Source of the DNA: Fibrobacter sp.
GTDB taxonomy: Bacteria; Fibrobacterota; Fibrobacteria; Fibrobacterales; Fibrobacteraceae
DNA length: 64,000 nucleotides
Assembly (NCBI RefSeq): GCF_045601785.1
Contig: NZ_JAZSAF010000048.1
Span: 729-64,728 of the forward strand
Direction: 5' to 3'
Under the pieces are notes generated by a model. That model was not told the origin of the DNA. It did no database searches and saw only the letters and a list, made by a program, of their open reading frames with translations. This document shows, in pieces, positions 3,083 through 21,473 of this stretch (the stretch's first letter is position 1; the number at the start of each line of letters is the position of its first letter). A program made the position numbers and the translations under genes.

Positions 3083-3904
3083 TTATGCCTCCTTCCCCTT
3101 GGTCAGCGGAAATAGTTGTAAATTCAATCGGTAAACTTTGTCGTATTCTTTTTCTTTGGCGGCCATGGCGACTACTTGCTGCCTTAGCGTTTCAAGCTTT
3201 TGCACCAGCCACTGGTACGTGTTTTCGGACATGCCGAGCGTAACACCCGTAATATGGCGCTCTTCGGGCGGAACCTCGTCAATAGCGGATGTCGCAAACT
3301 TGGACATCTGCCGATTCATGGAACGGAGCGCCAGGGGAATTGCCTCAGAAGAGCCCGTGACCACTTTTTCGGTCTGCTCGTAAGTGTCTTCGCCGACCTT
3401 TTTCAAGAAGTCCGCATGCGTCATAAAATCTAGGGCGTAGCGAACATCGGCTGCACTCACCACGGGGTAACACTTTCGTGCGAGTTCAAGTGGCTTTGTA
3501 CCCGGCATAATCGGGGCGAGCTCGCGTATTACGGGGTTCACCCACGATTCAAAATACTGGAACGCTTCTGCATCGACAACGCGCAGGCGGTTTTCCTTCG
3601 CGATTTTTTGCATCTCGTTGAAAGCTTGCATTTTCTTCTCGTCGCTTTTGGCATCTCCAAAATGCACCATTGCGCAAAAGTAGTCGTGATCGACTCCTTC
3701 GAGCCCCATGGCGTCGGCGACGTGTTCAATGCCGTTCTTGCTCAAACGGCTTTTGCCTTCGCAAACGAGCTTGATGTAGTTCGGCGAGCTGAAACCCGCC
3801 AGTCGAGAAAATTCACGCCACGAAAACACGGAGGTGCGTTTGCGCTCTTCGTAGTAATCGAGCATGTATTTGCGAAAATCTTGATATTCGGTGATTGGCT
3901 TCAT
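3083..3904 (-). CDS. TIGR02147/DUF4423-family protein (Fibrobacter paralogous family)
   Basis: MKPITEYQDFRKY..YY..RK..FSWREFSRLAGFSSPNY N-terminus and VYRLNLQLFPL C-terminus, both typical of the family. Confidence 0.85.
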   Translation of the reverse strand: MKPITEYQDFRKYMLDYYEERKRTSVFSWREFSRLAGFSSPNYIKLVCEGKSRLSKNGIEHVADAMGLEGVDHDYFCAMVHFGDAKSDEKKMQAFNEMQKIAKENRLRVVDAEAFQYFESWVNPVIRELAPIMPGTKPLELARKCYPVVSAADVRYALDFMTHADFLKKVGEDTYEQTEKVVTGSSEAIPLALRSMNRQMSKFATSAIDEVPPEERHITGVTLGMSENTYQWLVQKLETLRQQVVAMAAKEKEYDKVYRLNLQLFPLTKGKEA

Positions 3905-17432: not shown

Positions 17433-17540
17433 GAGCGATGAGGCCGCTCGTAAACTCGCTTTGAGGTCGCTTCGCTTTGGGGTTTGTAGATATCCTCTTA
17501 CCTCAGAGGCGCGTAGCGCCGCCCTCATAGCTCACAGCTA
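17432..17540. repeat. Intergenic composite palindrome, family 2, copy 2
   Basis: TGAGGTCGCTTCGCTTTGGG at 17462-17481; opposite unit CTCAGAG-GCG-CGTAG-CGC-CGCCCTCA at about 17502-17527. Confidence 0.65.
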
Positions 17541-17548
17541 TATTATAC

Positions 17549-18367
17549 ATGGAAAAGAACACTCTACTCCACAAAGTGCTTAAACTCTGGTTTCGCCAGA
17601 AGTCCGACGGCGGGCTTGAGGCGAAGCTCGGGTACCGGTTCAAGGACCCCGAACTGTTGGCGCATGCGCTGGTGCACCGTTCATTCTTGACGGGCACGGA
17701 CATGCCCTACGAGAGCAACAACGAACGCCTGGAATTTTTGGGCGATTCCGTGCTGAACATGCTCACCACCGAATTCCTTTACAAGACTTACCCCGACGAC
17801 CCCGAGGGCGAACTTTCCAAGCGCAAGAGCGCGATTGTTTCGGGACATGCCTGCGCACAGTCGTCCAAGGAATGGAGCCTGAGCGAATACGTGAAGGTAG
17901 GCAAAGCCGAAGAAAAACTCGGCGGCCGCGGCAAAGAAAGCATTCTGGCTGACGCCTACGAAGCGGTTCTTGGCGCGGTCTACCTGGATGGCGGCCTCGA
18001 CGAGGTCCGCGCCATCTTGAATAAGTTCCATTTTCCGCGGGTGCAGGAGATTATTTCTGCCGAAGACTTTATCAACCACAAGAGTGAGCTTTTGGAATAC
18101 CTGCAGGGTAAGCTCCGCACGGTTCCGGAATATGTGGTGGTCGATGAATCGGGCCCAGAACACCAGAAGGTGTTTACCGTCGAAGTCCACGTGGACGGTC
18201 GCGTGTACGGTCGCGGTCAGGGCGGCAACAAGAAGAAGGCCGAACAGGAGGCTTCTCGCGTGTCGCTTGAAATGCTTTTAGCCGAAGCCGCCAAGGCCGA
18301 AGCTGAAAAAGGCCCGGAAGAACCCAAGCCCAAAAAGCAGAAGCAGCGCCACGTCGGTTTGCCGTAG
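17549..18367 (+). CDS. rnc: Ribonuclease III
   Basis: NERLEFLGDSVL signature, LADAYEAVLGAVYLDGG, and a dsRBD (HQKVF.VEV...G.G.NKKKAEQ). Confidence 0.96.
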   Translation: MEKNTLLHKVLKLWFRQKSDGGLEAKLGYRFKDPELLAHALVHRSFLTGTDMPYESNNERLEFLGDSVLNMLTTEFLYKTYPDDPEGELSKRKSAIVSGHACAQSSKEWSLSEYVKVGKAEEKLGGRGKESILADAYEAVLGAVYLDGGLDEVRAILNKFHFPRVQEIISAEDFINHKSELLEYLQGKLRTVPEYVVVDESGPEHQKVFTVEVHVDGRVYGRGQGGNKKKAEQEASRVSLEMLLAEAAKAEAEKGPEEPKPKKQKQRHVGLP

Positions 18368-19640
18368 CCGTTGTTCTCTGCGGCTGTCATGCCGGGCATG
18401 TCCCGGCATCACCACACTTCTCGCAGCTGTCATGCCGGGCATGTCCCGGCATCACCACACTTCTCGCAGCTGTCATGCCGGGCATGTCCCGGCATCACCA
18501 TTTTTTTTTCCCCGCAGCTGTCATGCCGGGCTTGTCCCGGCATCACCTTTTTTTAAGTCCGCAAAGAGGATAGTTGTTCCCGGGATAAACCCGGGAAGAC
18601 AAAATCCGCCGACAGCTTCGTCGATATAGACCTTGATCTGCCATAGCTAACCATTTCTCGCAGCTGTCATGCCGGGCATGTCCCGGCATCACCATTTTTT
18701 GTACATTCTTCCTATGCAATCCTACAACTACTATGTTTATCTGCTAACAACGAGTGACAACTCCGTATTCTACACAGGTGTAACAAATGACTTAGCTCGA
18801 AGGGTTGTAGAGCATAAGGTTCATAGGAATAAAGGTTTTACGAGTAAATACAATGTATCGAAGCTTGTGTATTATGAGTTGTTTTTTAATATTGAAGACG
18901 CTATAAAAAGAGAAAAACAACTGAAAAGGTATCCACGGGTTTGGAAGTGTAACCTTGTGATGTCAAAGAATCCTGAGTGGAATGACTTGTCCGCATCTAT
19001 AGGAATAACTAAAGAAGTCATCGAATCCGCAAAAGGGACCGTTGTTCCCGGGACAAGCCCGGGAAGACAAAATCCGCCGACAGCTTCGTCGATATAGACC
19101 TTGTTCTGCCATAGCTAACCATTTCCCGCAGCTGTCATGCCGGGCTTGTCCCGGCATCACCACACTTCTCGCAGCTGTCATGCCGGGCATGTCCTGGCAT
19201 CACCATTTTTTCCCGCAGCAATAGGAATTACAATGAGCCTGCAAAAGGGACCGTTGTTCCCGGGACAAGCCCGGGAAGACAAAATCCATCCGCAGTTCCG
19301 TCGATATAGACCTTGTCCCGCCGTAGCCGATTGTTCTCTGCGACTGTCATGCCGGGCATGTCCCGGCATCACCACACTTCTCGCAGCTGTCATGCCGGGT
19401 ATGTCCCGGCATCACCATTTTTTAAGTCCGCAAAAGGGACCGTTGTTCCCGGGATAAACCCGGGAAGACAAAATCCGCCGATAGCTTCGTCGATATAGAC
19501 CTTGTTCTGCCATAGCTAACCATTTCCCGCAGCTGTCATGCCGGGCTTGTCCCGGCATCACCATTTTTTTCCCGCAGCAATAGGAATTACATTGAGCCTG
19601 CAAAAGGGACCGTTGTTCCCGGGACAAGCTCGGGAAGACA
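18361..19640. repeat. Mosaic (BIME-like) array of GTC-tagged palindromes around a GIY-YIG gene
   Basis: Type A GTCATGCCGGG(C/T)(A/T)TGTCCCGGCATC at 18386, 18429, 18472, 18520, 18666, 19134, 19177, 19346, 19389 and 19535. Type B GTCTTCCCGGG(T/C)TT(A/G)TCCCGGGAAC on the minus strand at 18576, 19044, 19256, 19445 and 19615. The spacers are repeated, not unique. Confidence 0.95.
18714..19097 (+). CDS. Stand-alone GIY-YIG nuclease family protein (UPF0213/YhbQ-like)
   Basis: YYVYLL...FYTGVTNDLARRVVEH...FT.KY.V.KLVYYE.F..IEDAIKREKQLK...W; AT-rich compared with its flanks. Confidence 0.9.
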   Translation: MQSYNYYVYLLTTSDNSVFYTGVTNDLARRVVEHKVHRNKGFTSKYNVSKLVYYELFFNIEDAIKREKQLKRYPRVWKCNLVMSKNPEWNDLSASIGITKEVIESAKGTVVPGTSPGRQNPPTASSI

Positions 19641-19673
19641 ATCTTTCTGAACAATTTATCTATATTGTTCCGT

Positions 19674-21473
19674 ATGAAAGATTTCTCTGTTAAAGTTTCT
19701 TGCGCGGTTCTTGTTGCATCCGCGTTTCTATTTACAGCTTGTAACGAGTCCGGCGCATCCAAGGGCACAGCCTCTAAAAGTGCCGAGTTGAACTGCCCCG
19801 AACTCCCGCAAGACCCCGAAGCCACGGGTGAGTTCGACCCCATAGCCTCGAAGGACGCACGCCCCTGCGGAACGATTACCTTGTGGGGTTCCGCGATGCC
19901 GAAGTCATTCAACATGTGGGAAGACTACAACAGCTTCTCCGCCGAACTCATGGGCATGATGTTCGAGCCTCTCGTGAGTCTGCACTCCACCGAGGACCGC
20001 GAAGTGGGAATCCTTGCCGACAGCTGGAACGTGTCCGAAGACGGCAAGACGTTCACCTTCCACGTAGACAGCCGCGCCAAGTGGAGCGACGGCAAGGCGA
20101 TTACCGCCGAAGACGTGCAGTTCTACTACGACGTCATCATGGACGAGAAAAACCTCACGCCGATTTTCAAGGTGGGGCTCAGCCGCTTTGACCGCCCCGA
20201 AGTCGTGGACAGCCTTACCATCAAGATGACCGCGAAGGAGAGCCACTGGGGTAACTTCTGGGAGGCGGCGGGCATGCTCGCGTTCCCGAAGCACGCTTGG
20301 GCAGGTAAGGACTTCAACCAGATTCGCTATGAATTTCCGGTGGTCTCTGGTCCCTACATCATCAAGACCTTCCGCGAAGACCGCTACGTGGACCTCGTTC
20401 GCCGCGCCGACTGGTGGGGCTTCAAGAAGAACTGGAACCGCGGCAAGTACAACTTCCAGAAAATCCGCTACCGCTTCATGAACGACCAGACGAAGGCCCT
20501 CGAAGCCTTCAAGAAGCAGGATTTCAACGCCTACGCCATCTACACCAGCAGCATCTGGATGAAGCAGACCGACTTTGATGCTGTGAAGAAGGGCTGGGCG
20601 GTAAAGCAGCGCATTTTCAACAAGGAGCCCATTGGATTCCAGGGCATGGCCATCAACTTGCGCAAGCCGCAGTTCCAGGACGTTCGCGTTCGCCGCGCAC
20701 TTAGCATGCTCTTGAACCGCGAGACGATGAACGAGAAGTACATGTTCGGCCAGTACTTCCTCTTGAACAGCTACTACCCCGACTTGTGGGAAGGCAACAA
20801 GAACCCGACGGCGCCGCTCTACACGTTCAATCCGGATAGCGCCCGTGCGCTCTTTGCCGAGGCGGGCTACAAGGTGAACGGCCAGGGCGTGCTGGAAAAA
20901 GACGGGAAGCCCTTTGCCATCAACTTCATTACCAGCCAAGAAGACTTGCGCCACCTCACGCTGTTCCAGGAAGACCTGAAGAAGGTGGGCGTCGTGGCGA
21001 CCATCGAGCAGATGAGCCAGAGCACGCTCCGCAAGCGTCTGGACGATGCCGACTTCGACCTTTACTGGGTGAACTGGGGGGCGGGCCGCCTCCGTGACCC
21101 GGAAGCGAGCTGGCATTCTGCGACCGCTCTCCAGAAGGGCACGAACAACTTGGCTGGCGTGCAAGACAAGGTGGTCGATAGCTTAATCAACTTGCAGAAG
21201 ACGGAATTCGATTTAGCCAAGCGGAACGAAATCCTGAAGGCGCTCGATAACCGCCTCGCAGAAATCGTGCCCTACGTGCTCATGTGGCAGTGCGACCACC
21301 ACCGCATTCTCTACTGGAACCGCTACGGCACTCCTGCTGGTGTGCTGGACCGCTTCAACCGCGAGGACGCCATTCCTGTCTACTGGTGGCTCGACCCCAC
21401 GAAGTCCGCGGCCCTCGACAAGGCCATGAAGGCGGGGGAGAACCTGCCGGTTCCGGAATATGATATCAAGTAG
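19674..21473 (+). CDS. ABC transporter substrate-binding lipoprotein, family 5 (peptide/YejA-like)
   Basis: Lipobox LFTA-C; LADSWNVSEDGKTFTFH...AKWSDG..ITAEDV.F family-5 signature; SGPY. Confidence 0.88.
   Translation: MKDFSVKVSCAVLVASAFLFTACNESGASKGTASKSAELNCPELPQDPEATGEFDPIASKDARPCGTITLWGSAMPKSFNMWEDYNSFSAELMGMMFEPLVSLHSTEDREVGILADSWNVSEDGKTFTFHVDSRAKWSDGKAITAEDVQFYYDVIMDEKNLTPIFKVGLSRFDRPEVVDSLTIKMTAKESHWGNFWEAAGMLAFPKHAWAGKDFNQIRYEFPVVSGPYIIKTFREDRYVDLVRRADWWGFKKNWNRGKYNFQKIRYRFMNDQTKALEAFKKQDFNAYAIYTSSIWMKQTDFDAVKKGWAVKQRIFNKEPIGFQGMAINLRKPQFQDVRVRRALSMLLNRETMNEKYMFGQYFLLNSYYPDLWEGNKNPTAPLYTFNPDSARALFAEAGYKVNGQGVLEKDGKPFAINFITSQEDLRHLTLFQEDLKKVGVVATIEQMSQSTLRKRLDDADFDLYWVNWGAGRLRDPEASWHSATALQKGTNNLAGVQDKVVDSLINLQKTEFDLAKRNEILKALDNRLAEIVPYVLMWQCDHHRILYWNRYGTPAGVLDRFNREDAIPVYWWLDPTKSAALDKAMKAGENLPVPEYDIK

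Follow-up and report, generated by a model that had tools for sequence, protein, structure and literature searches.

Between rnc and the gene of an ABC-transporter substrate-binding protein, this Fibrobacter genome has a gap of 1.3 kb (18368–19641 of the window, which is the whole stretch of 64,000 nucleotides analysed) that holds hairpin repeats and one small gene, and nothing else. The gene is predicted to encode a GIY-YIG nuclease of the Ssn type, and the locus raises the question of how the repeats around it multiplied and what the spacers between them are. The first description of Ssn nucleases with their hairpin repeats dates from 2025, and the mode in which such repeats multiply is of interest; the mobility of hairpin-ssn-hairpin units was left open by that work (Chenal et al. 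2025, PMC11893778).

We consider it likely that the array is a local, BIME-like tandem cluster derived from one Ssn-type cassette, in which the spacers are dead copies of the cassette and not transposed mini-elements. At the level of sequence comparison, the homology, the direction of the change (deletion, not insertion), the duplication in place and the lack of dispersal are established. The kind of system is already known; what is new is the local origin of hairpin pairs from decayed cassettes, together with a lead on same-site spread. In one lineage, the repeats at the gene would have multiplied because the whole cassette was duplicated locally and the extra copies then lost the gene, and not by scattered miniatures.

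Organization of the array and its hairpins

The coordinates of the features are given in Table 1. Between the stop codon of rnc (18367) and the ATG of the binding-protein gene (19674) there are ten A hairpins and five B hairpins in the present genome (G000), a draft assembly of 3.53 Mb, so that the copy number of the repeats may be imprecise. The two hairpin types are inverted counterparts, with arms that are 81–85% complementary. They form five units, each composed of one or more A hairpins, a spacer, a B hairpin and a tail of about 61 nt, the tail of 61 nt being present after every B hairpin but the last (B5). The order along the array is A1–4/short spacer/B1, A5/gene/B2, A6–7/long spacer/B3, A8–9/short spacer/B4 and A10/long spacer/B5, with a higher-order periodicity of 189–212 nt. 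Private variants are common to each unit type and tell the short from the long units, for example the B loop ATAAA versus ACAAG.

Table 1. Features of the rnc/binding-protein locus, in positions of the window
Feature	Position	Strand	Remark
rnc (RNase III)	17549..18367	+	ORF; orthologues in 58 of 61 genomes of the genus
A hairpins 1-4	18384..18547	+	first three at 43-nt spacing
Short spacer 1	18548..18572	+	T-run, aag, then the gene's final 18 coding nt in diverged form (right-anchored alignment)
B hairpin 1 and 61-nt tail	18573..18663	+	inverted copy of A, loop ATAAA
A hairpin 5	18664..18693	+	left end of the intact cassette
T-run and 5' leader	18694..18713	+	TACATT -10-like box 7 nt before the ATG; in no spacer
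Ssn-type GIY-YIG nuclease gene (127-aa ORF)	18714..19097	+	PF01541, E=7e-15; between A5 and B2
B hairpin 2 and 61-nt tail	19041..19131	+	loop ACAAG
A hairpins 6-7	19132..19204	+	left of long spacer 1
Long spacer 1	19205..19252	+	left over from the 3' coding tail of the gene; matches 18991-19009 at 16/19
B hairpin 3 and variant tail (tail')	19253..19343	+	last 23 nt a copy of the rnc stop-codon junction
A hairpins 8-9	19344..19416	+	left of short spacer 2
Short spacer 2	19417..19441	+	alignment to the gene's coding tail
B hairpin 4 and tail	19442..19532	+	loop ATAAA
A hairpin 10	19533..19562	+	left of long spacer 2
Long spacer 2	19563..19611	+	deletion end-points those of long spacer 1; spacer identical to the G085 copies
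B hairpin 5	19612..19641	+	right end of the array
ABC-transporter substrate-binding protein gene	19674..21473	+	right flank; adjoins rnc in many members of the genus

An A hairpin combines the TGTC tag with an 8-bp stem (first letters AT), a loop of 5 nt and a C that follows the palindrome, and the B stems start with TT instead. Folded as single-strand DNA, an A copy gave -9.6 kcal/mol (z -3.7), and the last unit from A10 through its spacer to B5, folded as one long hairpin, gave -24.3 kcal/mol (z -3.9). A search of the region against Rfam returned no match near threshold, so a known structured RNA is unlikely.

The hairpins resemble the CGTC/TGTC-tagged REPs, which have 8–9-bp stems with an AT start, loops of 4–5 nt and a short tail (Di Nocera et al. 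2013, PMC3733652). The A copies show all the characters of that group (tag, stem, loop, tail and multiple copies): the TGTC variant of the tag, the 8-bp stem with the AT start, the 5-nt loop, a short unpaired tail, and tens to about 100 copies per genome. A dedicated transposase was not found for those REPs in the same study (PMC3733652). Unlike them, the present hairpins are mostly solo and not head-to-head dimers, and Fibrobacterota is absent from the phyla listed in PMC3733652.

The nuclease gene, its family and its similarity between species

Ssn proteins (cd10448) are single-domain GIY-YIG proteins of about 94 aa encoded by genes that are flanked by hairpin repeats. Their targets are hairpins in single-stranded DNA, which they bind and cut a few nt to the 5' side; cleavage depends critically on the upstream GTC and binding on the C that follows the palindrome, and the catalytic residues of SsnA of Neisseria meningitidis are Y6, Y17 and E64 (Chenal et al. 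2025, PMC11893778). The product of the present gene is likewise a small single-domain protein, with a nuclease core of about 95 aa (approximately residues 1–95) followed by a conserved tail of about 20 aa. The GIY-YIG profile covers residues 5–72, and no other domains were found. Residues Y9, Y20 and E67 have the same 11- and 47-residue spacing as the three catalytic residues of SsnA, a likeness of spacing that was noted without a direct alignment. As with the NTS/SRM repeats of Ssn genes, oriented hairpins lie on both sides of the gene, A5 at a distance of 20 nt before the ATG and B2 at the 3' end, with arms 85% complementary, and both A and the reverse complement of B have the GTC tag as well as a C that follows the palindrome. 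The hairpins are also scattered over the genome and clustered near genes, as in Ssn-bearing genomes, and the genome has 118 perfect GTC-tagged (GTCWT) hairpins versus 8–18 in shuffled genomes.

The present system also departs from the described Ssn systems. The degenerate SRM string as published does not cover its stems (GCCGGG / CCCGGG): written as a regular expression, the string matches the NTS consensus but neither A nor the reverse complement of B, and the A/B stems have a C at the position where the string demands R. The conserved C-terminal extension is encoded by 18999–19040, and the ORF continues from there through the 3' hairpin B2. A tandem array with spacers made of decayed gene copies is not described in PMC11893778, and the activity of the present protein is a prediction. 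The cassette is thus best placed as Ssn-type by its architecture and residues, not by the formal criteria of those authors.

Homologues with E values of 1e-20 to 1e-30 were found in Rickettsiales, Alphaproteobacteria, Bacteroidota and Patescibacteria, which fits the spread reported for the Ssn family. Searches of NCBIfam and PDB with the nuclease gave as the only informative match the UPF0213 GIY-YIG structure 1zg2 (E 1.5e-6), and our literature search found GIY-YIG genes tied to REP, REPIN or MITE-type derivatives in no paper but the Ssn paper. No second close copy of the gene exists in the 3.53-Mb assembly. A distant GIY-YIG gene, about 25% identical and probably of the UPF0213 type, is present in the same genome at C73:69162-69404.

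Diverged Fibrobacter homologues at other loci retain the order of + hairpin, T-run/5'UTR, gene and - hairpin, with stems that differ and covary. In one of them (G103), at another locus, the leader is similar to the T-run/TACATT leader of the present gene. This recurring order around diverged homologues with different stems supports the view that the A-gene-B unit is a real cassette, and the TACATT box of the leader is a putative promoter element. A TAYATT box lies 4–8 nt before the ATG in all three genes of the locus (18702-18707, 17534-17539 and 19662-19667), which suggests very short leaders at all three.

Comparison with the genomes of three other species, G063, G065 and G085 (loci L052, L053 and L054), revealed that the core of the nuclease gene (18714-18998) is 97.5–99.3% identical to that of G000, versus 85–89% for the two flanking genes, rnc and that of the binding protein, in which identity does not rise towards the array (Fisher p about 1e-8). 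The repeats beside the gene are 88–93% identical between G000 and G063. The relatives that are closer by rnc (90–94%) lack the nuclease gene, and the GC content of the gene is 36.8% versus 56–58% in the flanks. The distribution is patchy but at one site, with a gene far less diverged than its flanks, as with free-standing homing-endonuclease genes, and it suggests a recent horizontal, homing-like exchange confined to the cassette. Between G000 and G085 the array repeats and the long spacers are also more alike than the flanking genes, so something beyond vertical decay acted on the array. In G085 (L054) a one-base deletion at about codon 91 of the gene puts the C-terminal tail out of frame, and the catalytic core is intact.

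A further reading takes the cassette as a selfish gene that passes horizontally from one Fibrobacter species to another and enters the hairpin sites downstream of rnc, either by nuclease-stimulated gene conversion akin to intron-less homing or by recombination within the repeats, the array being the debris of repeated invasion, duplication and decay. The contrast in identity between gene and flanks, the lower identity of the adjoining repeats, the low GC content and the lack of the gene in the rnc-closer relatives all speak for it. The free-standing GIY-YIG homing genes of phage T4 (Seg proteins) offer a parallel, being AT-rich, selfish-looking, patchy, located at the same site and less diverged than their flanks. 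Against it, we observed no donor-recipient event, and the genomes that bear names are all metagenome bins. Ssn enzymes are reported to cut single-stranded DNA only, with no known homing activity, and the present protein, unlike the Seg proteins, has no separate DNA-binding domain. We hold such spread to be possible but doubtful, and it would supplement the local duplication of the cassette, not replace it. Across species the divergence of the gene is ten-fold lower than that of its flanks, a sign of horizontal same-site spread that can be tested, and if homing-like spread proves true, it would provide comparative evidence, for the first time, of mobility in hairpin-ssn-hairpin units.

Growth of the array at the rnc locus

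Under local duplication, the history would start with one Ssn-type cassette, composed of a hairpin, a small gene for a GIY-YIG single-strand DNA nuclease and an inverted hairpin. The cassette would have been duplicated in place, with the adjacent rnc stop-codon junction within the duplicated segments, and internal deletions would have stripped the promoter and the catalytic domain from all copies but one. One deletion would have produced the long spacer, with about 44 nt of the 3' coding tail, and its product would have been duplicated again; a larger deletion would have produced the short spacer, with the last 18 coding nt only. By analogy with the Neisseria and Wolbachia enzymes, the nuclease is expected to bind the extruded hairpins and to nick single-stranded DNA just 5' of the GTC tag, and such nicks, together with dense direct repeats, would favour replication slippage and unequal exchange, so that the array could expand and contract. 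That the protein is an active nuclease, and that it might contribute to the instability of the array, is deduced from the family.

The clearest trace of duplication in place is found in the tail after B3, whose last 23 nt match the rnc stop-codon junction at 22 of 23 positions, a match that none of 3000 shuffles reached. The copied junction consists of the last 7 nt of rnc and the first 16 nt of the array. Since this junction is copied within the array and the C-terminus of rnc is ancestral, the repeated unit arose at this locus, chromosomal flank included, and at least some of the amplification would therefore be a local segmental duplication that took in the flank. The tails of the other units are older, diverged versions of the same rnc-junction segment; the similarity of the first 37 nt of the unit tails to the coding sequence of rnc was not significant. 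Ungapped comparison of the tails at 19283-19343 and 19071-19131 showed 19 differences, 18 of which are transitions, in both directions and far from the usual ratio. Frequent exposure of the DNA as single strands, and hence deamination, may account for this excess.

The initial annotation had proposed that the array grew by amplifying deletion derivatives of an autonomous unit in the manner of REPINs or MITEs. In that reading, A-spacer-B units are non-autonomous elements mobilised in trans by the GIY-YIG protein, and the array results from repeated side-by-side transposition. Several features agree with it: A and B are inverted repeats and a unit can form one long hairpin, the units derive by deletion from a cassette with a coding gene, and Ssn-type cassettes occur at different loci in different species. 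Like REP/BIME clusters and REPINs with their RAYT, the array is a mosaic of hairpins in alternating orientation with conserved linkers, with a single-copy nuclease gene between its own repeats and a doublet that can fold as a long hairpin; like MITEs, the units keep terminal inverted repeats and have lost the coding part by internal deletion.

Dispersal, however, is lacking. With a whole A-long-spacer-B unit as BLAST query, full-length matches were found at the rnc/binding-protein locus only, in the five array-bearing genomes, and one of them, in G054, is located beyond a contig break. Elsewhere in the present genome we found no other A-spacer-B units, only solo A-like hairpins, and 91 of 98 hairpin clusters are singletons. 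A copy of the rnc stop junction inside a repeat unit is moreover unexpected of a transposed unit. In contrast to REPIN/RAYT systems, the enzyme here is a GIY-YIG and not a Y1 (HUH) transposase, and the doublets are not dispersed and have spacers with remnants of the nuclease gene. In contrast to MITEs, there are neither dispersed copies nor target-site duplications, and the tandem duplication includes host flank. Full units outside the locus thus number zero in five genomes, and the REPIN/MITE-like origin is unlikely and, by the test that the initial annotation itself had set, close to refuted.

The orthologous site in other genomes is variable, and this variation, like the periodicity of 189–212 nt and the private variants of the unit types, speaks for local duplication. 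In G056 nothing but a solo B hairpin separates rnc from the next gene. A single cassette is present in G060, three units (short/gene/short) in G063, the gene and a diverged long unit in G065, and seven units in G085, both long-spacer versions among them. Distant relatives have solo + hairpins at the rnc/binding-protein site. In three of these (L049, L046 and L044) solo GTC-tagged hairpins have insertions of 30–50 nt in their loops, perhaps members of another repeat family nested within these hairpins. In L054 (G085), L029 (G065) and L030/L081 (G054), several A copies break off within the loop and continue directly into the tail at a common TGT/CTTGT, which suggests microhomology-mediated deletions.

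A second Fibrobacter Ssn locus, L075 (G014:C45:94803-97891), carries a cassette unrelated to the present one, and its duplicated unit includes the upstream flank. The last ~50 coding nt of its gene are copied downstream (~1620–1700 and 1830–1900), and the copy of the coding tail is joined to the copy of the upstream flank via a GATAGAATC direct repeat, the gene having been deleted between GATAGAATC repeats. As judged from this structure, L075 is another tandem duplicate that lost its gene, with the same history as the present array. Smith-Waterman searches for tail remnants in about 40 other Fibrobacter Ssn loci gave L075 as the sole further case, the others being negative. A search for gene fragments by blastn-short in 80 loci across phyla, which is insensitive to diverged remnants, returned only hairpin matches and one whole-gene tandem duplicate. 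On an uncultured Bacteroidales contig (L103), two Ssn gene copies (2492-2806 and 3266-3579) are 99.7% identical and about 770 nt apart, and this pair appears to be a recent tandem duplication of a whole cassette.

Origin of the spacers from the gene

The gene unit and the spacers between A and B (19202-19255 and 19560-19614, and the shorter 18545-18575 and 19414-19444) read as the initial annotation had described them, and its view of the spacers as internally deleted copies of the gene unit was borne out. The long spacers and the gene unit have in common the left junction (the end of A, cacc and the T-run) and a right junction of 15 nt. Directly upstream of the latter, the 29 nt unique to the long spacers match 18991-19009 at 16 of 19 positions, in colinear order. 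Only 4–6 of 5000 mono- or dinucleotide shuffles, and 4–5 for long spacer 1, reached this score anywhere in the 325-nt interior of the gene; part of the match could stem from an A-A junction, because the long spacer opens with 8 nt (cccgcagc) that also occur, without a difference, in the 5' flank of A copies. Read in frame, the remnant gives PAAIGIT versus SASIGIT in the gene, the homology with the gene's 3' tail that had been noticed at first reading, and a deletion of 9–10 nt accounts for the difference in length between the long spacer and the gene tail. The long spacers have thus lost the leader, codons ~1–92 and these further 9–10 nt, and retain about 44 nt of the 3' coding tail. Without the leader, the TACATT box and codons ~1–92 they are unable to make protein. 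In the short spacers, the T-run is followed by no more of the coding tail than its final 18 nt before B, the SAK codons included.

The direction of this change follows from the C-terminal motif DLSxSIG[I/V]TKExIxSAK, which is conserved in six homologues at at least four loci. The Fibrobacter homologues that bear it are 60–83% identical, and one of them is located at the rnc locus of a distant species. Because the segment that matches the spacers encodes a motif conserved at other loci, it is part of the gene and not a pre-existing spacer, and the spacers are best explained as decayed copies of the cassette, not as an earlier landing site.

We also weighed the opposite direction, in which the long A-spacer-B unit is ancestral and the GIY-YIG gene was inserted into it, taking the spacer as its own 3' end. 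The two junctions common to the gene unit and the long spacer formally fit insertion as well as deletion, and the gene is AT-rich and foreign-looking. The common segment, however, encodes the motif that homologues keep elsewhere and, in a distant species, at this very locus, and the 9–10 nt absent from the long spacers are present in all intact genes, which makes insertion quite improbable. The homologues elsewhere do not lack the IG[I/V]T...SAK tail but carry it.

Chance similarity or an assembly artefact is hardly credible: only a short remnant is left, and repeats of less than the usual read length could be collapsed or expanded, but the shuffle tests, the colinear position of the match and the presence of the same long spacer and of a diverged sister with the same deletion in independent assemblies from other samples all stand against it.

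In the independent assemblies of related species the units with this long spacer are 94–97% identical and the spacer itself is identical. A second, diverged version with the same deletion is present in the assemblies of G065 and G085; its local alignment alone is not significant (188–272 of 5000 shuffles), and it counts by its colinear position and common deletion only. Long copies with identical deletion end-points occur twice in G000 and twice in G085, and therefore one deletion occurred, after which the derivative was duplicated again. Amplification of deletion derivatives, as the initial annotation had it, thus stands in the form of duplication in tandem, and not of dispersal.
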